From the NCBI GenBank assembly GCA_043799545.1, contig JAZDNO010000020.1:1-64000 (forward strand): a stretch of 64,000 nt of DNA, given 5' to 3'. This document shows, piece after piece, positions 1,695 through 12,905 of the stretch. A program made the position numbers and the translations under genes. Each line of letters opens with the position of its first letter. The first letter of the stretch is position 1. Under the pieces are notes generated by a model. That model did no database searches and had not been told where the DNA came from. It saw only the letters and a list, made by a program, of their open reading frames with translations. Source of the stretch: Methanobacteriota archaeon. GTDB taxonomy: Archaea; Thermoplasmatota; Thermoplasmata; SG8-5; DAIRED01.

Positions 1695-1747
1695 ACCTAA
1701 CAGGCGGGTATATGACTCAGACGTCAAATACCTGCAAGCCGTTTGGT
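1695..1747 (+). other. attC-like (59-base-element-type) recombination site 1
   Basis: ACCTAAC (RYYYAAC) ... GTTTGGT (one mismatch from GTTRRRY), with internal inverted repeats GCGGGTAT/ATACCTGC and TGAC/GTCA; just upstream of an RBS and the TIR gene. Confidence 0.6.
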
Positions 1748-1769
1748 GGAAAACTATGGAGGAAAATTA

Positions 1770-2159
1770 ATGACAAAAAAAAGAGCATTTATTAGTTTTG
1801 ATTACGACCATGACCTTGATATTAAAAATTTACTGGTGGGGCAGGCTAAAAATCCCGATTCTCCATTTGAAATTATTGATATGTCGATAAAAGAGGCAAT
1901 CTCTGAAGATTGGAAGGATAAAGCACGAACCCGTATCAAAGGGTGTGATGTAGCTATTGTATTATGTGGAGAATATACTGATTTTGCTACAGGTGTCTCA
2001 GCTGAATTAGAAATTACCCAAGAAGAAAACGTGGGTTATTTTCTACTGTATGGGAGGGCGGACAAAATATGTAAAAAACCAAAAAGCGCAAAGGCTAGTG
2101 ATAAATTATATAATTGGACTTGGGACAATTTAAAAAATTTAATTGGTGGTGGTCGATAA
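1770..2159 (+). CDS. TIR-like domain protein (ThsB/DUF1863 type)
   Basis: RAFISFDYDHD, DMSIKEA, VAIVLCGEYT and putative catalytic Glu in GVSAELE; GGAGG RBS at 1758 favours ATG 1770. Confidence 0.85.
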   Translation: MTKKRAFISFDYDHDLDIKNLLVGQAKNPDSPFEIIDMSIKEAISEDWKDKARTRIKGCDVAIVLCGEYTDFATGVSAELEITQEENVGYFLLYGRADKICKKPKSAKASDKLYNWTWDNLKNLIGGGR

Positions 2160-2224
2160 ATGCGAAAGACGTTAATTAAAGACCACATTTTACTCCTCGC
2201 AATTGCTTGGAGCGATGAAGAAAC

Positions 2225-2746
2225 ATGACTGTGAAAATACCAACATTTCTAAGCGTCGGTGAACCACACAATGAGGCACAGCGTAAGTATTTGGATGCAT
2301 TAGTTATATATTTAAGTAGACATGGTATTGTTGCAGAAACACTTGGTCGTTCATTTTGGTCTATTGAAAACCCATTAAGACCAGTGCAACAGAAGATGCG
2401 AGAAGTTAATGGCGCTGTCATTTTGGCTATGGAGCGATTCCATTCAGAAAAAGGTACCTATAAAGAATATAGTGCTTCGGGAAAAGTTGTTAACGACCAA
2501 TATTTTGTCACGGTTTGGACACAAATTGAAGCCGCCATGGCCTACCAACTTGAATTACCTCTCTTGATTTTAAAAGATGATAGGTTAGTTGCTGAAGGGA
2601 TGCTTGATCCAGGGATACACGAGTGGGTGATAGTTAGAATTAACCCTGAAAATCCTGATGAATTAAAACGGGATCCAATCAAAGCATTTATTGATAGTTG
2701 GATAGAAGCTGTTCGAAAATGCTATTACTCGAAGAAAGGTCGGTGA
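2225..2746 (+). CDS. Second TIR-like / Rossmann-like nucleotide-processing protein
   Basis: PTFLSVG N-terminal strand, GAVILAMER, WTQIEAAMAYQLELPLLILKD (TIR-like Glu helix followed by a P-hydrophobic strand). Confidence 0.6.
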   Translation: MTVKIPTFLSVGEPHNEAQRKYLDALVIYLSRHGIVAETLGRSFWSIENPLRPVQQKMREVNGAVILAMERFHSEKGTYKEYSASGKVVNDQYFVTVWTQIEAAMAYQLELPLLILKDDRLVAEGMLDPGIHEWVIVRINPENPDELKRDPIKAFIDSWIEAVRKCYYSKKGR

Positions 2747-2760
2747 AATATGGTGACGGC

Positions 2761-2842
2761 GTGTAACATCGGTTATGCGATTCGCTTCGCTCACACGAAT
2801 TGTGCCTTGAGTACAACTTCGCATACACTGAAAGCATTAAGC
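2761..2842 (+). other. attC-like site 2 (degenerate)
   Basis: GTGTAAC ... TATGCGA/TCGCATA inverted repeat ... ATTAAGC(GAAAT); lies between the TIR2 stop and the AbiV start. Confidence 0.6.
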
Positions 2843-2875
2843 GAAATAAACCCGTAGACTAATGGAGAATAAAAC

Positions 2876-3475
2876 ATGCAAAAAATAAATGCAGAAACGT
2901 TATATGATAATAGGAAAATGGCTTTATTGAATGCGAGAGAATTACTTAATGATGCACAGATATTATTCGAATCAAAGAGGTGGGCTAGATGTTTTTTCCT
3001 GGTACAAATTGCCACTGAAGAACTTGGAAAATATGGAATCATTATTTCATCAGCCATGAGTATAAAACACGGTTCTATTAATATAAGTAGTTTTATAAAG
3101 CGCTTTAAGAATCATAAGGAAAAGACAAGAAATATTCTGATGCTTGAAGACTTGAAGATATTTATCGATAATAAAGGTAAGTCTGAGTTGTTTAACTTCG
3201 ATTCAAGGAAAGAACACGCGGAAATGCAAGAGCAACTTAAATTTAGAGCGTTATATGCAGATTTTGATGAACGTGGAACACTTTGTATTCCATCCCAATT
3301 ATTTGGAAGAGATATATGTTCAATATCAATCAAGCTTCTAGAAAAAAGGGTTAGGTTAATGCAATCCTTTGAGAACGATATTGCTTCTAAATTTGATTTT
3401 AATAAAATAACAAAAGAAGAGATCGATGACTTTTATAACAAGATTGGACTTAATGAAATATTAAAGAAAAGATAA
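2876..3475 (+). CDS. AbiV-family (HEPN) abortive-infection protein
   Basis: NARELLNDAQILFE...RCFFLVQIATEELGK...NHKEK...RALYAD motifs typical of AbiV. Confidence 0.8.
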   Translation: MQKINAETLYDNRKMALLNARELLNDAQILFESKRWARCFFLVQIATEELGKYGIIISSAMSIKHGSINISSFIKRFKNHKEKTRNILMLEDLKIFIDNKGKSELFNFDSRKEHAEMQEQLKFRALYADFDERGTLCIPSQLFGRDICSISIKLLEKRVRLMQSFENDIASKFDFNKITKEEIDDFYNKIGLNEILKKR

Positions 3476-5590: not shown

Positions 5591-6307
5591 TTAAGGAATT
5601 CGTAGGGTAACTTCCCTCTTCATGAACACAATTTTGACGTTTCTCGGTAAAGCCTTTCGTATGTCGCTGACCTTCGCGTAAAAGTTGGGAAAGGACTTCT
5701 TTGAATTGTGGAAGTGAATCGGTATGCACGTCGCCCCTTCCCCAAGTTTCAAGAATGAATCTAGGTTGGCTTCCTTCCCGATGATTGCCCAGACAGGGAA
5801 GAACACGATATCCGGTGCTTCCTTTATCATGGCTTTCGTCGCAATAGAGTCTCCCATGAAGAGGATCTTCTTACCGTTATAAATTATAAGAAAGGCGAGT
5901 CCCTCCGTGGCCTGGAGGACTCTCACCTGTACTCCGGCAATATCCACAGAGTCTCCAACATTGCACGGGCGCATGCGCTTGAAGAGCTTCCGAAGACCAT
6001 CGATATCCTTCGCCTCGAAACTCATCGCAAGCGATAATGGCTCGCCGACGGTTCTCGGGCAGCATATTGTCGTGGAGTCATTGCTGAGAGCCATGACCGT
6101 GTTAGAGTCAAAATGATCCCAGTGCTCGTGCGATATAAAGATGGCAGATGCCTTGCGCTCTTTCCTCGGGTTTAAGGTAGTACGAAGCAGATGATTCTCC
6201 CGCACGGGATCGAGGTAAAGGGAAGTATTCCCCGTCTGCATCTTCAGGCAAGAATGACCGAACCACATTATTCTAACATTAAAATTACCTTTGCTGTTCA
6301 TACCCAA
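5591..6307 (-). CDS. Metallo-beta-lactamase-fold hydrolase (UlaG/UPF0173-like)
   Basis: WFGHSCL, YLDP, FISHEHWDH (HxHxDH), FMGDS, IPIHF. Confidence 0.85.
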   Translation of the reverse strand: MGMNSKGNFNVRIMWFGHSCLKMQTGNTSLYLDPVRENHLLRTTLNPRKERKASAIFISHEHWDHFDSNTVMALSNDSTTICCPRTVGEPLSLAMSFEAKDIDGLRKLFKRMRPCNVGDSVDIAGVQVRVLQATEGLAFLIIYNGKKILFMGDSIATKAMIKEAPDIVFFPVWAIIGKEANLDSFLKLGEGATCIPIHFHNSKKSFPNFYAKVSDIRKALPRNVKIVFMKREVTLRIP

Positions 6308-6342
6308 GCCATCCCTCCACTAACAACCATCCTGGGCACTCT

Positions 6343-6486
6343 TCCGTTCGTTCCCAAGTGACGGTTCCTATTCGGTCTCACGACCTCTGAATGTACGTCA
6401 CACATATTAAAAATATCGACCCCGTGCCTTCGTTGAACTCGGATGAAGTTCACGGTCGAGGGTCTGAGCTACGAGACGATACGGTT
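6343..6486 (+). repeat. Cassette-junction site A: degenerate tRNA 3'-end fragment plus conserved arm with leftward TATA promoter
   Basis: TCCGTTCGTTCCCA then AGTGACGGTTCCTATTCG; 6353-6440 matches 10669-10756 at 85/88 nt; also GGATGAAGTTCACGG and CTGAGCTA...GACGATACGGT. Confidence 0.8.
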
Positions 6487-6491
6487 GAGGG

Positions 6492-6617
6492 TTACTTCTC
6501 GCCAAGCTCTCTAACTTCATCTGACTTCTTTACAGATGAGATGACAACAACCCTGCTAACATTTGTTTCATCTGGTTTCATTTTTACTTCCTTCTGTTCC
6601 TTCTCATCATCGGCCAT
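6492..6617 (-). CDS. Small charged peptide (41 aa) coupled to the upstream membrane protein
   Basis: MADDEKEQKEVKMKPDETNVSRVVVISSVKKSDEVRELGEK; GGAGG RBS; overlaps the stop of 6607-7374. Confidence 0.55.
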   Translation of the reverse strand: MADDEKEQKEVKMKPDETNVSRVVVISSVKKSDEVRELGEK

Positions 6618-7374
6618 ATCGAACCTCCATAATTTTATCCAAATCAGCCTTATCATAATGCGGGTATTTGTTATTAATTTCCATTACTTCCTTGTACTTA
6701 CCTTTAATCTTATTATGCATTTTCCACCAAATTGATACAACACCAGCAACACTAACACAGAATAACAATCCTATTTGAGCTAAATAGAAATCATACTTGT
6801 CTCCATTATCAATCATGTCTTGTGGATCCATTAAGGGCAGGAAAGAATAACTGAATAAAATAATGCCACAAAATATTAGAGTACTCATTGTTAGTATATG
6901 TCGAGCAATTTTCATATTCATGAATTCACATATCTTGATGTCCAGACTATTCCCACGAATCAAAGTATTAGTCAGTTCCTCTTTGGATTTATCCTTATAT
7001 TTTTCATATAACTCAATTTGATTTGGCCCCAATGAAAACATTACTTTTTCAGGGCTTAAATACAAAGATAATCCTAATAAAATCGACAATAGAACAAATG
7101 CAATCGATATCGCACAGATTAATGCAAAATTATCATAGATTTTAATTATAGCACTGTTATCTTCTGGCACAATCAAATCATTTAAAATGTAACTTAATAA
7201 CGCCAAGATAAAACCTATAACTCCTAATGCTAACGTAATAAATGAGCTGGCGCGCCCTAATAAGGTTTTATTAACATCAAGTATCTTATTTAAAGTTGAA
7301 TCACCTTCATTCTTAATCATCACAAGCGTGTCTAGCTTGCTTTCATTTGTAGGATCAATCATCGTAACCCTCAA
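6607..7374 (-). CDS. Multi-pass membrane protein (about 4 TM)
   Basis: Four hydrophobic segments; AT-rich; start may be ATG 7362. Confidence 0.75.
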   Translation of the reverse strand: MRVTMIDPTNESKLDTLVMIKNEGDSTLNKILDVNKTLLGRASSFITLALGVIGFILALLSYILNDLIVPEDNSAIIKIYDNFALICAISIAFVLLSILLGLSLYLSPEKVMFSLGPNQIELYEKYKDKSKEELTNTLIRGNSLDIKICEFMNMKIARHILTMSTLIFCGIILFSYSFLPLMDPQDMIDNGDKYDFYLAQIGLLFCVSVAGVVSIWWKMHNKIKGKYKEVMEINNKYPHYDKADLDKIMEVRYGR

Positions 7375-7383
7375 CCTCTACAT

Positions 7384-7687
7384 CCAATCGCTCATCCCCA
7401 AGTGGCGGTTCCTAGTCGTTCGTTTCACGAACTCTAAATACACTTCGTACCATAAATAATTCTCTACCCCGTCCCTTCGTTGGACTCGTGATTCCTCCTA
7501 AGTCCCCAAACCTAAGTGCTGGCCCATTATACCTAACAAAAGCCGGGATACAATGAGCCCATTCAGCTGCTAATCGTCGGAACCGTGCGCACTCCTGTCC
7601 CGCCGTCAAATTTAGGACGGAGATGCTCCGGCGAGGCATCCATGCGGCTTCTCGTCAATGAGATGGAGTTCATGGCCGAGGTGGCTC
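7384..7687 (+). repeat. Cassette-junction site B
   Basis: CCAATCGCTCATCCCCA (GCTCATCCCCA identical to site E), AGTGGCGGTTCCTAGTCG; 29 nt identical with site C (7458-7486 vs 8773-8801); GGCGAGGCATCCA; AGATGGAGTTCATGG. Confidence 0.8.
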
Positions 7688-7692
7688 ACTAA

Positions 7693-8691
7693 TTATCTGG
7701 TCGATGTTAAGTAATTACGATTGTACACCATATTTTGAAACAGTAATATTATTGGAATCAACTCAATAATTGCAAATTTTATCATCATAGCATTGTATAT
7801 ATTTATTATTTCCTTAAATTTAATTATTTCTGGTCTATCCTTTTTATTATGGTATAGATATAAACAGTCATTCCGCGTAATAAATTTACCATGAGCCAGA
7901 GTATTTCTCATTCTCCTTGTATCCGCTATTATTTCATTACGTTCACTCTCAACAAGTGATTTATATTTAAAATAAAGATTAAGTAATTTCATTCTTTGTT
8001 TATGATTCTGATTAGGCAATAACGCAGAGAACATTTTTACTCCTTGGTCCATATTTAACTGGAATTGGATTATCAATCCAAAAAGAATTAAATAAACTCT
8101 TGCCTGGCGATATTTTTTACGCTCTTTGTAAAAACTCTCGTAGATTGTTTTAATATTACCCAAATTGCCATCAATAATCGAGTAATGAAACCCAAGAGCT
8201 GATGGTGGGCTAATAATCATATTATATTCATCAATAGATTTGTCCAGCCATAATGTCCATAATTTACTAATAATTCGATGTGCTTCAAGATCGCCCCCAG
8301 TGTTTGTAAGAAAATCGGTTTTAGTACAATCACCAAGAATTCTTAATAGCAAATCTGGGTCTTTTTCACTTTTTATATATCCATTTATTTTCTTCACAAC
8401 ACATAATGTGTCAGTGTATCCAATTCTAGCTAACCTTTTTGTTAATAACCTGTACACTTTTGGATAAGTATCATATCGTGTCATTTGCCGCGAATATACC
8501 TCTTTTATTTGGTTGCATCCAACACATAATAAATTGGTCTTCCAAACAACTTTTTTTTTATTCAATGAAATACATGCTACTCTTACTCGTTCAACTGGCT
8601 CAAGCTTAAGTTCACTCGATAAACAATCTTCGCAAAAGAAATATGGGTTGTTATCTAAGAACTTCGATATTATAAAATCATTACCCAACAC
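7693..8691 (-). CDS. Zn-finger plus C-terminal HEPN-like protein
   Basis: N-terminal FFCEDCL...LCVGC; C-terminal RNTLAHG (R-x4-H HEPN motif). Confidence 0.65.
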   Translation of the reverse strand: MLGNDFIISKFLDNNPYFFCEDCLSSELKLEPVERVRVACISLNKKKVVWKTNLLCVGCNQIKEVYSRQMTRYDTYPKVYRLLTKRLARIGYTDTLCVVKKINGYIKSEKDPDLLLRILGDCTKTDFLTNTGGDLEAHRIISKLWTLWLDKSIDEYNMIISPPSALGFHYSIIDGNLGNIKTIYESFYKERKKYRQARVYLILFGLIIQFQLNMDQGVKMFSALLPNQNHKQRMKLLNLYFKYKSLVESERNEIIADTRRMRNTLAHGKFITRNDCLYLYHNKKDRPEIIKFKEIINIYNAMMIKFAIIELIPIILLFQNMVYNRNYLTSTR

Positions 8692-8704
8692 CTTTTTAGT
8701 TATA

Positions 8705-8960
8705 CGTTCGCCCCCAAGCGACGGTTTCTATTCGCCGGCTTCACAGGCTCTAAATATTGACGCACCTATATAAATTCTCTACCCCGTCCCTTCGTTGGAC
8801 TTGGGATTGGGGCTTGTATTATTGCCTAAGAACGCTGAGAGCCGTCTTCACTGGCAAGCGCTCCAACCGTGCGCTGCGCTGTCCCGTCGTCGTTGTCAGG
8901 TCGCGTGGCTCTGGCGAGGCATCCACGCCGCCGCTCGTCGTTTGGATGAAGTTCACGGCG
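8705..8960 (+). repeat. Cassette-junction site C
   Basis: CGTTCGCCCCCA then AGCGACGGTTTCTATTCG; ACCCCGTCCCTTCGTTGGACT; GGCGAGGCATCCACGC; GGATGAAGTTCACGG. Confidence 0.8.
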
Positions 8961-9169
8961 GAGTAGGCCGACCTTTACTACAATAACGGCTGTGTGCCCT
9001 TTAAAGCCAAAACGACGCGCAGTATCCCCTCGCTACGAATCCGTTTGTCTTCCACCTAAGCAAAATAAATTCAATATTGGCCAGACAAATAATTACACTC
9101 GTAACGAAACTAATTTATTCACAAGCTATGTATTATCATACATGCCAATAGATATGGCAGGATGATAAC

Positions 9170-9439
9170 ATGACTAGATATCGAGATGGAATAACCAGAC
9201 AAGCTGAAATACCAATGGCTGACCTCAATAAAAAAATTGACTCCTATCACGCCTTGTTGGTTTTGGGAAGGATAAATGATTTAACAGACGGAGAATGGAC
9301 TTCGTTCAATCTAGAGACAAACCTTCACTTCTCTGAATTGAGCGAGGTTGCACAAAAAAAGGTTCTTAAGATAAGGGACCAACAACCATCGCAACATTTT
9401 CGAGGCCAATATTCTAATCCACCAGATGATGATGAGTAA
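9170..9439 (+). CDS. Hypothetical protein (89 aa), inverted relative to neighbouring cargo
   Basis: Open AT-rich ORF with AGGA RBS. Confidence 0.6.
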   Translation: MTRYRDGITRQAEIPMADLNKKIDSYHALLVLGRINDLTDGEWTSFNLETNLHFSELSEVAQKKVLKIRDQQPSQHFRGQYSNPPDDDE

Positions 9440-9493
9440 TGAGTTCTGATGTTCCTAGATAAATCTCTGGTTGCTACTTAATTAAAACGATGA

Positions 9494-9958
9494 TTATTTT
9501 TTTGTCCTAAACTGGTATAGCGCCAACGATAATATAATCATTAAAATTCCCCCAGACACAAAAGTATATGGATTTTGATCTGGGAGCGTAGCCATCCCAA
9601 ATAATAGTATTGCTACAAATACTAAAAAGAGACATAATAAGGGTATTAACTCGCCAGCATTAGATTCCACGCTATTGTTACCTGCTCCAGTTAATGTTGC
9701 TCCATAATTATATTTCCAGGGAGATGTGCGGTAACCACTTTCTTTCATATGTGGGTGCTGACTTCTATGGCAATCTTCACATAGGCACACTAAATTATCG
9801 GAATAGTTTGATCCGCCTTTTGATAATGGAACTACATGGTGGGCATGTAATCTTATCCCTGATGCTCCACACTGTTCACATCGGCCGCCAGCTCTTGAAT
9901 AAGTTGCCTGTCGTTTCGAATCCCAATCCTCAGGGTAATCAGGGAAATTCCAACTCAC
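9494..9958 (-). CDS. HNH endonuclease with two C-terminal TM helices
   Basis: RCEQCG...LHAHHVVPLSKGGSNYSDNLVCLCEDCHRSQH; hydrophobic C-terminal hairpin. Confidence 0.85.
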   Translation of the reverse strand: MSWNFPDYPEDWDSKRQATYSRAGGRCEQCGASGIRLHAHHVVPLSKGGSNYSDNLVCLCEDCHRSQHPHMKESGYRTSPWKYNYGATLTGAGNNSVESNAGELIPLLCLFLVFVAILLFGMATLPDQNPYTFVSGGILMIILSLALYQFRTKK

Positions 9959-10019
9959 AGTTAGTTATTATGTACCACCATTATATGTTTTTCTATGTTC
10001 GTAACTTATAAAATCTATT

Positions 10020-10568
10020 TCACTTTCGATGCGCAAAGTCTATATCTATACCATAGTCGCTATCTTCGGAACTACTTACAGATAATTTAGGTTGGTTATT
10101 GTTAATTTCCTCCTCCAAGTGCTTTAAAACTTTCTCGCATTCAGTTAGTTGTAGACATTGTTCTAGGTCTTGTAATAATTTGCTACAGTTCGGCGAATAG
10201 GATTGTAGGCTAATCCTGAATGTATAATACTCTTTCTTACCAAATTCCTTATTACACCCTTTTTCCTCACCAGCTTTGATAATTGATAACACCTTTACAT
10301 ATTGATTGAAAAAATTATCTATATCTTTAGATGTCAAATTATATTCCTTTTCCAGGTCTGCTGAATACTTCAAATTTTGCCTAAGTGCATTTATGGCATT
10401 CCAATATATTGTGTTCTCTGCTACCTGAATAATATTTGGTCCAGCAATAGCTACCAAAGGTGCATTTTTAATTTGATTAATAATGTTCCTAGAATACTCT
10501 AAAGTAAGATTTAGCAACACATCAGACTTATCATGTATATCTTTACTTTCTTTTGATGCCATTATCAA
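10020..10568 (-). CDS. Hypothetical protein
   Basis: 182-aa AT-rich ORF; no recognised motif. Confidence 0.7.
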   Translation of the reverse strand: MIMASKESKDIHDKSDVLLNLTLEYSRNIINQIKNAPLVAIAGPNIIQVAENTIYWNAINALRQNLKYSADLEKEYNLTSKDIDNFFNQYVKVLSIIKAGEEKGCNKEFGKKEYYTFRISLQSYSPNCSKLLQDLEQCLQLTECEKVLKHLEEEINNNQPKLSVSSSEDSDYGIDIDFAHRK

Positions 10569-10658
10569 TCCCTTTTAATGACCTGATTTCTATCCTGTAT
10601 TTAAAAGGATTTGGAGGGGATACTACGCACGAGACGGGCACACAGCCTTAGCGTCCAG

Positions 10659-10897
10659 TCGGTCGTCCCCCAAGTGACTGTTCCTATTCGGTCTCACGAC
10701 CTCTGAATGTACGTCACACTTATTAAAAATATCGACCCCGTGCCTTCGTTGGACTCGTGATTCTCACTTTATACCCCATTCCTAAGTGTATCCAGATGTA
10801 CCGTGGAGAAACCGGCAAGGCATCCACGCGACCTCTCGTCGCTTACTGGTTGTTCAAGGTCCAGGTGCTGAGCTAAACGACGATACGGTCGTGGCTC
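10659..10897 (+). repeat. Cassette-junction site D
   Basis: CGGTCGTCCCCCA then AGTGACTGTTCCTATTCG; near-identical to site A over 88 nt; GGCAAGGCATCCACGCG; CTGAGCTA...GACGATACGGT; GTGGCTC end shared with B. Confidence 0.8.
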
Positions 10898-10917
10898 CCC
10901 CAGCCGATATCAAACAG

Positions 10918-12276
10918 CTAATAGAAGTTCTCGATTAAACGCTCACCATGTTCTAATATTTCTTGATAACTTAAACCAATGATGTTTTTCGAATCTTCTA
11001 ATGCCCAACGTATGTCGGAATCCTTTTTATAAACGATTAACGTTCCTTTAAAAACCGTTGCTGGAATATCTTCGTAAACTTGCGCATACATTTCTTTAAT
11101 TTCTCCCAGATATCCTCGCAATTGGCTAACAGCATCTTTAGTATTGACATTTTTATCGCTGGGACGTTTAAATTCGATAATGTGAATCTCGCGCGATCTT
11201 GATGTATAACCACCATCGAATATCACTAAATCTGGAATCATGCCAGTATCAGTTTTTCCTTTTGATACGATAAATTCAGGATGCTTCTTATAAAACAATT
11301 GAGAGATTGCGCCATTCTCTTGGTATATTTCAGATATTAAACTATGTCCCATTAGCCAGATATTGTCTTTTATCAAATCATGCGCTTCACATTCATAGGC
11401 ATCACCCTTATGAATAATACTTTTAAAGTCTGTCACAACTGAAATTCGATGTAAATATTTCTGATAAACTTCAAGAATTCCTTTATCTACTGGAATACTC
11501 ATTGTTTCATTAATTTGTTGATATGATGTTTCAAGCATTATATTTTTTAAATCATAGTGGGAGCTAGTTCTAGTCACCCCACTACCCAATATATATATTT
11601 CATACCCTCTTTGCCATATTTTATAGCTATCTTCACCTTCTTTTGGTAAAACTGATGTATCAATAGAATTTCTGACTTCTTGTGATATTGTTTTAATCTC
11701 TCCAATTATGTCCGATGGTGATGACGATTTTGGGATGGCTACGACCATGTCCACTCCATTAGTAAATATACTTAACTTTAATATCTGAAAATTATGTCGT
11801 TCAGCACGGTTAATAAAGCTGTTTTGAACATGCGTTGCACACTCAGACGTGGATATTGCATGCGCTTGATTTTTTGTCGAGAATATTAATCGGAATAACG
11901 TGAATTTATCACATGGTTCGTTTGTTATCTGGTTGACAATACTCCATTTTATTTTTTCTGTTGATGGTCTGTGTTGTTCATAATATTTCATCAAAATTAT
12001 GTATAGCGAACTTTTGACGTAATTATAAACTTCTTCCAACTTGTATTTCGGGCTTACAGAAATATCGAGCCATGTTGTAAAATTACTTGGAAAATATATC
12101 CCTTCAACCTTTACACGATCCAGTTCTTCAATTTTACTATAAAGTTCATTTTTCCATCGTCCAAAACTTTGCTTGATTATCGGCGCACTTACTTCCTCTA
12201 TCTGGATTCGATAAACAATGTAAAAAACCATTCCTTTTCCTTTACCGATATTAGCTAGCCATTCTCTTTTAGCCAT
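10918..12276 (-). CDS. Fusion of two degenerate IS200 TnpA (Y1-HUH)-like domains and a Shedu-like PD-(D/E)xK nuclease
   Basis: FRLIFSTKN...RAERHNFQILKLSIFTNGVDMVVAIPKSSSPSDIIGEIK...IWQRGY (TnpA fold, HUH lost); N-terminal SVSPKYKLEEVYNYVKS resembles a second copy; C-terminal IPDLVI...IIEFKRP...AVSQLRGY...LSYQEIL. Confidence 0.6.
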   Translation of the reverse strand: MAKREWLANIGKGKGMVFYIVYRIQIEEVSAPIIKQSFGRWKNELYSKIEELDRVKVEGIYFPSNFTTWLDISVSPKYKLEEVYNYVKSSLYIILMKYYEQHRPSTEKIKWSIVNQITNEPCDKFTLFRLIFSTKNQAHAISTSECATHVQNSFINRAERHNFQILKLSIFTNGVDMVVAIPKSSSPSDIIGEIKTISQEVRNSIDTSVLPKEGEDSYKIWQRGYEIYILGSGVTRTSSHYDLKNIMLETSYQQINETMSIPVDKGILEVYQKYLHRISVVTDFKSIIHKGDAYECEAHDLIKDNIWLMGHSLISEIYQENGAISQLFYKKHPEFIVSKGKTDTGMIPDLVIFDGGYTSRSREIHIIEFKRPSDKNVNTKDAVSQLRGYLGEIKEMYAQVYEDIPATVFKGTLIVYKKDSDIRWALEDSKNIIGLSYQEILEHGERLIENFY

Positions 12277-12323
12277 TATTCCACCATATTACTCGATAAT
12301 ACGCGAGGGGGTCCACAATCTTT

Positions 12324-12400
12324 GTTCGAATCCGCTCATCCCCAAGTCACGGTTCCTATTCGCGCTCACATGCCACAATGGGAGCGCCCATTTATAAAGT
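12324..12400 (+). repeat. Cassette-junction site E: best-preserved tRNA 3'-end fragment plus short arm and promoter
   Basis: GTTCGAATCCGCTCATCCCCA (12324-12344) parses as tRNA positions 53-73; followed by AGTCACGGTTCCTATTCG; TTTATAAA at 12391-12398. Confidence 0.8.
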
Positions 12401-12408
12401 TTGTTCGT

Positions 12409-12666
12409 TTACCCGAACTCTACGCCTTTATACTTCTCTCCAGATGGCGCCTTCGTCGCCCCCTCCACCCCGTCCTCGACCCCCATCATCATCTCCAGCA
12501 GTTCCTGGAACTTATCCGGATGCATCAGGACAAGAGCCACTCGCTCCTCTATCTCAGCTCCAACCTTCGTTTTGAACTCGATGGCGACGGCATCACCGTG
12601 TAGCCAGACGACGAACTCGTTGGCGTAGACCGGGAGCGGGCTACCATTCACCTTCGCCGTCTTCAA
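12409..12666 (-). CDS. DUF3467-like small protein (paralog 2)
   Basis: PVYANEFVVW...AIEFKTKVG...VLMHP..F; ends KYKGVEFG. Confidence 0.6.
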   Translation of the reverse strand: MKTAKVNGSPLPVYANEFVVWLHGDAVAIEFKTKVGAEIEERVALVLMHPDKFQELLEMMMGVEDGVEGATKAPSGEKYKGVEFG

Positions 12667-12905
12667 GCGAACTCCACCCCATTGTATTCCTTCTCCTCGG
12701 GGATTCCCACGTGCTCCTCCGTCTCCCCTTCCACGATGCTGAACATCGCGTAGAAGATGCGCTCGAACGTCTCCGGGGTCATGAAGACGGTGGTCGCGCC
12801 CTCGGTCTTCTTGCCAATCTTCGTCACGAACTCCATGCCGTAGCAGCCTTTGAGCGCCCAGAGCTTGCAGCCGTTCGCGTACACGGGCGTAGGACCGGCC
12901 TTCAT
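12663..12905 (-). CDS. DUF3467-like small protein (paralog 1)
   Basis: PVYANGCKLW...GMEFVTKIG...VFMTP..F; ends EYNGVEFA; ATGA-type overlaps with both neighbours. Confidence 0.6.
   Translation of the reverse strand: MKAGPTPVYANGCKLWALKGCYGMEFVTKIGKKTEGATTVFMTPETFERIFYAMFSIVEGETEEHVGIPEEKEYNGVEFA

Follow-up and report, generated by a model that had tools for sequence, protein, structure and literature searches.

What might an archaeon gain from a protein that carries two copies of a transposase fold, neither of them with the histidines of the transposase active site, in front of a nuclease? The question is raised by the gene at positions 10918..12276, on the minus strand, of a 64,000-nucleotide stretch (the window, below) of contig JAZDNO010000020.1 from the assembly GCA_043799545.1 of an uncultured Methanobacteriota archaeon (Thermoplasmata in the GTDB lineage). 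The gene is an intact open reading frame (ORF) of 452 amino acids (aa) with an ATG start, and its product, P0001, consists of a TnpA-like domain 1, a TnpA-like domain 2, a linker and a Shedu-like PD-(D/E)xK nuclease, in that order. An initial annotation, drawn from the sequence, had read the gene as tandem, catalytically dead IS200 TnpA-like domains fused to a Shedu-like nuclease; it had placed the ORF exactly, and we add the strand. This anatomy, in which both TnpA-like domains lack the His-hydrophobic-His (HUH) motif, is well supported, and in all likelihood P0001 is a defence nuclease that acts as one protein and has a sensor not described before.

TnpA transposases are obligate homodimers that bind folded single-stranded DNA (ssDNA) hairpins. 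Shedu proteins form homotetramers or octamers, gate their nuclease through the N-terminal region and have anti-phage activity. According to a Shedu survey, these nucleases are under the control of N-terminal sensor domains of great diversity, removal of the N-terminal part activates the enzyme, and the family comprises 79 N-terminal domain families and 7,687 homologues, 47 archaeal (bioRxiv 10.1101/2023.08.10.552793).

An intact gene of foreign origin

The P0001 gene is of foreign origin and has a guanine-cytosine (GC) content of ~34%, against 58% for the genome; it is present in a single copy in the host assembly (2.06 Mb, 94% complete). In random sequence of ~34% GC, roughly 7% of the codons would be stops, and chance therefore does not account for a frame that stays open over 452 codons. 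The gene comes with a TATA-like box and a GGTGG ribosome-binding-like site of its own. All the TnpA and nuclease motifs quoted in the initial annotation are present: FRLIFSTK (residues 128-135), NGVD at the HUH position (173-176), VAIP (179-182), IIGEIK (190-195) and IWQRGY (220-225) in the transposase-like part, and PD (348-349), IEFKRP (367-372), AVSQ..Y (382-389) and SYQEIL (436-441) toward the C-terminus. Folded from its single sequence, the whole protein gave an AlphaFold model with a predicted local distance difference test (pLDDT) score of 36, and phmmer searches with each piece of P0001 against PDB sequences returned no relevant match.

Two TnpA-fold domains without HUH histidines

The middle domain of P0001 (residues ~125-258; 11503..11904, minus strand) is recognisable from its sequence. 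Pfam Y1_Tnp covers residues 128-237 (E-value 5.2e-9; 36.7 bits, cut-off 23), a hidden Markov model (HMM) built from 22 canonical archaeal TnpAs matches with an E-value of 3.3e-8 (database of 17,306 ORFs), a PHROG transposase family matches as well, and NCBIfam transpos_IS200 reaches 37.9 bits, under its equivalog cut-off of 55. A TnpA-like stretch had thus been rightly recognised before, but its numbering (155-265) was ~27 too high, the true limits being ~126-240; the residue numbers given for the N-terminal copy were correct. In an exhaustive structural comparison of the AlphaFold2 model described below with 48,161 PDB chains, the middle part matched 2vhg_A (ISHp608 TnpA; Z 9.4, model range 79-240).

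At the HUH position this domain reads N173-G-V-D176, and the four canonical TnpAs aligned with it all read D-H-V-H; both HUH histidines are therefore gone. The last strand retains W221, and 20 residues beyond it is Y241. This is the spacing of the catalytic tyrosine in a canonical TnpA (locus L018), but Y241 is in a helix with a pLDDT below 50 and at a position where the MAFFT alignment is inconsistent. Loss of the metal-binding histidines supports the prediction that the middle domain is catalytically dead, with Y241 remaining. The catalytic death claimed for the tandem domains is a prediction from the histidines, which are lost in both domains.

The N-terminal domain (residues ~18-117; 11926..12225, minus strand) is more degenerate. 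Residues 1-125 alone matched no Pfam family and no PDB sequence. Direct comparison of the N-terminal and middle domains with BLASTP was tried too, and found nothing. The assignment rests on structure and on profiles of a sister family of archaeal proteins (see below). With that family as the alignment, AlphaFold2 modelled residues 1-285 with a pLDDT of 68 (73-92 across residues 21-100) and a predicted template modelling score (pTM) of 0.64, as two consecutive beta-alpha-beta-beta-alpha-beta units. The top two matches of this model among the 48,161 PDB chains were 2ec2_A and 2vhg_A, both IS200-family transposases. The first of them, the IS200 transposase of S. tokodaii, covers the model range 18-117 (Z 10.4, root-mean-square deviation 2.7 A, 98 residues aligned), and the RAYT structure 4er8 came at rank 28. 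When the two-domain model was compared with the PDB by Foldseek, all the matches were generic ones of the tandem ferredoxin/ACT-like kind (template modelling (TM) scores 0.2-0.35); TnpA was seen by the exhaustive VIA search.

Profile comparisons lead to the same fold. An HMM of the sister-family N-domain, built without P0001, matches the N-domain of P0001 (E 0.0012) and also canonical TnpA ORFs (E 1e-6 to 1e-3) in which HUH and Tyr are intact and some of which adjoin tnpB; among the 16,829 ORFs of P0001's genome it matched no unrelated ORF below E 0.3. In the reverse test, the TnpA HMM matches sister-family N-domains (E 9e-7 to 0.03). The program hhalign pairs the N-domain profile with that of the middle domain (67% probability, E 5e-5, 36 columns), with beta3-alpha2 in register. 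The HUH position of the N-domain is F66-T67-T68-W69, i.e. T-T-W, devoid of histidines, and the domain runs straight into the middle domain with no alphaD/Tyr helix between them. Both N-terminal domains, then, model as a TnpA (Y1-HUH) fold, and the idea that the N-terminus is a more degenerate second copy is borne out by structure and transitive profiles, with no direct sequence match.

In fold and topology, both domains resemble the TnpAs of IS200/IS605 elements (2VHG, 2EC2) and the domesticated RAYT/TnpA-REP, and the register of IS200/IS605 TnpA is kept at the Trp strand, at alpha2 and at the conserved Pro-x-x-S/P 'SIPP'-like turn. Unlike these transposases, P0001 holds two domains in one chain instead of forming a homodimer of single domains, lacks HUH in both, and has an alphaD-like helix with Tyr only in the second; it is fused to a nuclease, single-copy and without tnpB, and no transposon ends of its own were found. 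A HUH-less tandem form is not among the 12 subclasses of the TnpA-Y1 classification, all of which have the HuH/Y core and of which only subclass 1.1 (IS200 type) occurs in Archaea (PMC6006769).

A Shedu-like nuclease at the C-terminus

The C-terminal domain (residues ~295-452; 10921..11394, minus strand) is a PD-(D/E)xK nuclease with motifs I-IV, and its best-scoring family is SduA_C. By inspection, motif I corresponds to E295/E297, motif II to D349, motif III to E368-x-K370 and motif IV to Q385, in the same order as in SduA (E204, D249, E264/K266 and Q295 in the B. cereus protein), with a spacing between motifs III and IV of 15 residues in P0001 versus 29 in B. cereus SduA. The four motifs are also kept in P0002, a homologue of this part of the protein. 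SduA_C matches residues 295-401 with 24.3 bits in the whole protein, 26.4 in the C-terminal piece and 25.8 in the genome scan (E 9e-6 to 4e-5), for a cut-off of 27. PDDEXK_9 matches too, Mrr_cat does not, and the PADLOC SduA model gives E-values of 0.0016-0.0065.

An ESM-Atlas model of residues 280-452 aligns over ~155 residues with SduA_C clusters (TM 0.69-0.77), a lead-level comparison of predicted with predicted structures. The clusters matched include a classical SduA_N+SduA_C cluster and GHKL-ATPase+SduA_C clusters; in one of those matched, all members (100%) have SduA_C and 62% have SduA_N. We call the domain Shedu-like, its membership by HMM score being borderline: motifs and structural similarity agree with the family named in the initial annotation, but 26.4 bits fall short of the cut-off of 27.

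P0001 resembles type 1 Shedu (SduA of B. cereus and E. coli) in being encoded by a single gene, in its C-terminal SduA_C/NucS-type PD-(D/E)xK nuclease with motifs I-IV, and in having a variable N-terminal region and a helical linker; both are found in defence islands. It differs from type 1 Shedu in its N-terminal region, which is the tandem HUH-less TnpA fold.

A sister family with other effectors

The two-domain module is not confined to P0001. We found it in a sister family of ~26 archaeal protein clusters (P0006-P0031; 405-584 aa) from Thermoplasmata and metagenomes, in which two HUH-less TnpA-fold domains are followed by Mrr_cat. One member, P0006 (431 aa; L005:1393-2685 in G048, a genome of P0001's class), aligns to residues 40-195 of P0001 (BLASTP E 4e-6). 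A whole-family HMM built without P0001 matches P0001 collinearly over both domains (E 4e-5), and the domains pair in the same order, middle to middle (E 0.0021) and N to N (E 0.0012). Identity to P0001 is only ~20-23%, and the core positions common to both are F38, G39, F66, P76, K135, P182 and W221. MAFFT misaligns the C-termini of P0001 and the sister proteins.

The sister family is like P0001 in its homologous two-domain N-module, in the loss of HUH from both domains (the positions read C-I-Y in the N-domain and S-V-E in the second) and, at ~410-465 aa, in protein length; it is unlike P0001 in its effector, Mrr_cat in place of an SduA_C-like domain, and one sister member has a TIR domain. 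This member, P0021, carries the TIR at its N-terminus, where defence TIR models match at E 4e-21. The same module is thus joined to two different PD-(D/E)xK effectors, with a TIR variant, and this pattern, as read from sequence, is that of a reusable sensor with swappable effectors (SduA_C-type, Mrr_cat, TIR variant). The search for the architecture in other genomes, which the initial annotation had suggested, accordingly had a double outcome: the N-module recurs with Mrr_cat in the ~26 clusters, but in the databases and genomes searched the SduA_C-type fusion was found in P0001 only. No conserved neighbour gene was found among the sister-family loci by BLASTP and inspection of contexts, and hence there is no sign of a partner protein.

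In the source databases, the sister proteins are annotated as 'RayT transposase', IS200 transposase or 'transposase'. Given that HUH is missing, this annotation is unlikely. A different view would be that P0001 is a still-active, unconventional Y1 enzyme coupled to a nuclease, with Y241 nicking and joining DNA, D176 or other residues acting as metal ligands, and a novel transposase or relaxase as the result. The canonical W+20 spacing of Y241 fits this view, as do the invariant Tyr in the second domain of the sister family and the conserved acidic residue at its second-His position (Glu in 23/24 proteins). Both HUH histidines are nonetheless missing from both domains, and neither transposon ends of its own nor multiple copies were found for P0001, so that we hold an active Y1 enzyme to be highly improbable.

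As a separate observation, an Acidobacteriota cluster in the ESM Atlas (279 aa, 98% Y1_Tnp) aligns to residues 14-316 of P0001 (TM 0.63, 218 residues). Judging from these models, double-length TnpA-like proteins may exist in bacteria too.

Rarity of the fusion

A word search of 5.8 billion proteins returned P0001 as the sole match, and exhaustive phmmer against 1.84 billion cluster representatives returned P0001 itself and P0002 only (276 aa, E 1e-4), which is homologous to the C-terminal part alone. A profile search added no further architectures of this kind. Neither the congeneric genome nor G002 nor any of 400 genomes of the class yielded P0001; in 60 relatives and those 400 genomes, the searches turned up canonical TnpAs and a single sister-family member (that of G048), and nothing else. 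Full-text literature searches gave no report of such transposase-nuclease fusions. The words 'transposase', 'HUH' and 'IS200' do not occur in the main text of the Shedu survey (bioRxiv 10.1101/2023.08.10.552793), and 'tandem', 'inactive' and 'fused' are absent, by text search, from the TnpA-Y1 classification (PMC6006769). The tandem dead-TnpA module thus appears to be undescribed within the literature searched.

Such rarity could mean that P0001 has no working function and is an orphan chimera, neutral or in decay, that travels as cargo in a cassette. In favour of this are its singleton status in databases of very large size, its high divergence and its poor fold from the single sequence (pLDDT 36). 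Yet the gene preserves 452 uninterrupted codons in AT-rich DNA, the four nuclease motifs are intact, the core positions conserved in the sister family are kept, and the TATA-like box and the GGTGG ribosome-binding-like site are its own. We give little credence to decay.

A defence island around P0001

A low-GC island (~1.7-12.4 kb of the window; 34-40% GC, genome 58%) harbours P0001 together with other defence genes. At one side of it, on the plus strand, are a ThsB-like TIR gene (1743-2159) and an AbiV/HEPN gene (2876-3475), together with an unannotated gene of 173 aa (within 1743-3475); this group is on the strand opposite to that of the cassette array described below. Further along are an MBL-fold gene (5591-6307) and, on the minus strand, an HNH endonuclease gene (9494-9958; 154 aa, with a hydrophobic C-terminal tail) that matches ZorE-like and type IV restriction HNH models of PADLOC. 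The HNH gene forms a two-gene cassette (9494-10568, minus strand) with a 182-aa protein without family match. No tnpB was found near P0001.

These neighbours bear on whether P0001 is a restriction-like enzyme of type IV/Mrr style, whose module would recognise double-stranded, modified or sequence-specific DNA with no hairpin sensing or allostery. Besides the HNH and other restriction-like genes nearby, this would agree with the Mrr_cat of the sister family, a domain that provides catalysis in restriction enzymes dependent on DNA modification, and with the existence of Shedu homologues that have restriction-type partners. It is at odds with the established activity of characterised Y1/HUH-fold proteins, all of which act on ssDNA (PMC6006769), and neither P0001 nor the nearby genes include a methyltransferase or a modification-reading domain. 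On balance, we regard a restriction-like enzyme as unlikely.

An integron-like array with P0001 as its first cassette

Within the island, P0001 belongs to an array of AT-rich, mostly single-gene cassettes (6336-12401, minus strand) separated by a conserved structured element of ~300 nucleotides (nt). The element, up to ~300 nt long, precedes each minus-strand gene from 12.4 to 5.6 kb. Its 5' module is termed the 'tail' and its 3' module the 'head', and the middle part between them contains a TATA-like box. The head has a hairpin that covaries and the core GAATAGGAACCGTCACTTGGGG, which occurs at 12361, 10689, 8733, 7417 and 6373; the hairpins of the element show compensatory changes. Array starts bear the head module only and array ends the tail module only. 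P0001 is the first cassette: upstream it has only a head module (12330..12401, minus strand), consisting of a TATA-like box, a short hairpin and then GAATAGGAACCGTGACTTGGGG. The junction element downstream (10656..10866, minus strand; nhmmer and alignment) comprises a tail module (10812-10866, minus strand; nhmmer) followed by a partly deleted middle and by the head belonging to the cassette that comes next (10656-10804, minus strand; nhmmer and alignment). Both flanks of P0001 are generic head and tail modules, common to unrelated cassettes.

Directly upstream of the array head, we also observed two tandem paralogous genes (12409-12905, minus strand; 85 and 80 aa), GC-rich and host-like, both with PVYAN...GVEF motifs.

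The element has 12 copies in this genome, 26 in the congener and 3 in one genome of the same order, and was found nowhere else among 401 genomes of the class. Neither the window nor the junction elements matched Rfam, even up to E 5. We tried the junction element as the left and right ends of an IS200-type transposon or as an attC analogue; a head/tail split was seen, but the boundaries were not sharp, and we favour neither reading. Further arrays are present in P0001's own genome, G000 (C12:59667-72983, C25:30830-33154, C15:1-1584, C20:24546-25046 and C11:515-563), and several contigs break within arrays. Between them, the genomes G000, G001 and G002 have four canonical IS200-type TnpA genes, each of which adjoins a cassette array, at its head or beside it (G000 C25:29915-30370; G000 C12:58590-58937; L049, on G002:C18, 7300-7758; L050, on G001:C138, 4543-5064). 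These four have HUH and Tyr intact and are without tnpB. At the locus where the two congeners are syntenic, tnpA is followed by a different first cassette in each.

Could P0001 then be part of the array machinery, its module binding the array hairpins and its nuclease cutting there, for cassette excision or insertion, homing or addiction? Its position as first cassette, the covarying hairpins of the junction elements, the adjacency of all four canonical TnpA genes to such arrays and the lack of a canonical TnpA at the head of the window's array would all suit this role. Against it, P0001 is absent from the congener, with its 26 element copies, and from G002; its TnpA-like domains are not specially near the local TnpAs (E 3e-5, versus E 3e-9 for TnpAs of other genomes); and its 34% GC and head/tail flanks mark it as cargo like other cassettes. 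A role in the array machinery is, in our estimation, quite unlikely.

A proposed hairpin-gated nuclease

We lean, if only modestly, toward a model by analogy in which the dead TnpA pair replaces the homodimer, binds folded ssDNA and gates the Shedu-like nuclease, with a role in immunity. The effector would be a Shedu-type (DUF4263-like) PD-(D/E)xK DNase with a complete predicted active site, and the regulatory part an exapted IS200/IS605 transposase whose tandem domains stand in for the TnpA homodimer. This module would recognise single-stranded or hairpin DNA, such as rolling-circle or ssDNA replication intermediates, transposon circles or the injected DNA of invading or replicating elements. 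Binding would release or direct the nuclease, which might then cut the invading DNA or, if the outcome is abortive infection, cellular DNA. We propose this ligand because TnpA binds hairpins and because the N-terminal domain of type 1 Shedu holds the nuclease inactive. Sensing and defence are suggested by the defence island, by the sister family with another nuclease and by its one TIR member; for P0001, the ligand, the mode of activation and a part in immunity are what we infer by analogy from TnpA and type 1 Shedu.

Some of our observations weigh against this model. The HMM of canonical TnpAs did not detect the N-domain of P0001 directly, and the assignment of this domain is transitive and structural, with an AlphaFold2 model that uses the sister-family alignment. 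The best SduA_C score is 0.6 bits under the Pfam cut-off and the PADLOC SduA match is weak. Y241 at catalytic spacing, together with the acidic D176 at the second-His position, leaves some chemistry possible. The loci of the sister family are not obviously defence islands. Lastly, P0001 has no orthologue, and selection on it is therefore not measurable.

A bolder extension of the hairpin-gated model would be immunity by transposase mimicry: the module would mimic a transposase dimer, recognise Y1-type ssDNA hairpins and, with its Mrr and TIR sisters, target ssDNA intermediates of mobile elements. The targets could be IS200/IS605 circles, rolling-circle plasmids or viruses, or the lineage's own TnpA-driven cassette traffic. 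If true, this would be an immune system encoded as a cassette in the very type of array that TnpA may build; we consider it a doubtful prospect.

That Shedu- and Mrr-type nucleases borrow many sensors is known; an exapted, histidine-less IS200 transposase duplicated in one chain did not turn up in the literature searched. Dozens of archaeal proteins that now bear the label 'RayT/IS200 transposase' are probably something else. The hairpin-gated model offers a concrete ligand hypothesis, ssDNA hairpins, and, if true, would make P0001 a clear case of an enzyme of a selfish element recycled as an immune sensor. For this archaeal lineage, P0001 would add defence cargo to its integron-like, TnpA-associated cassette arrays.

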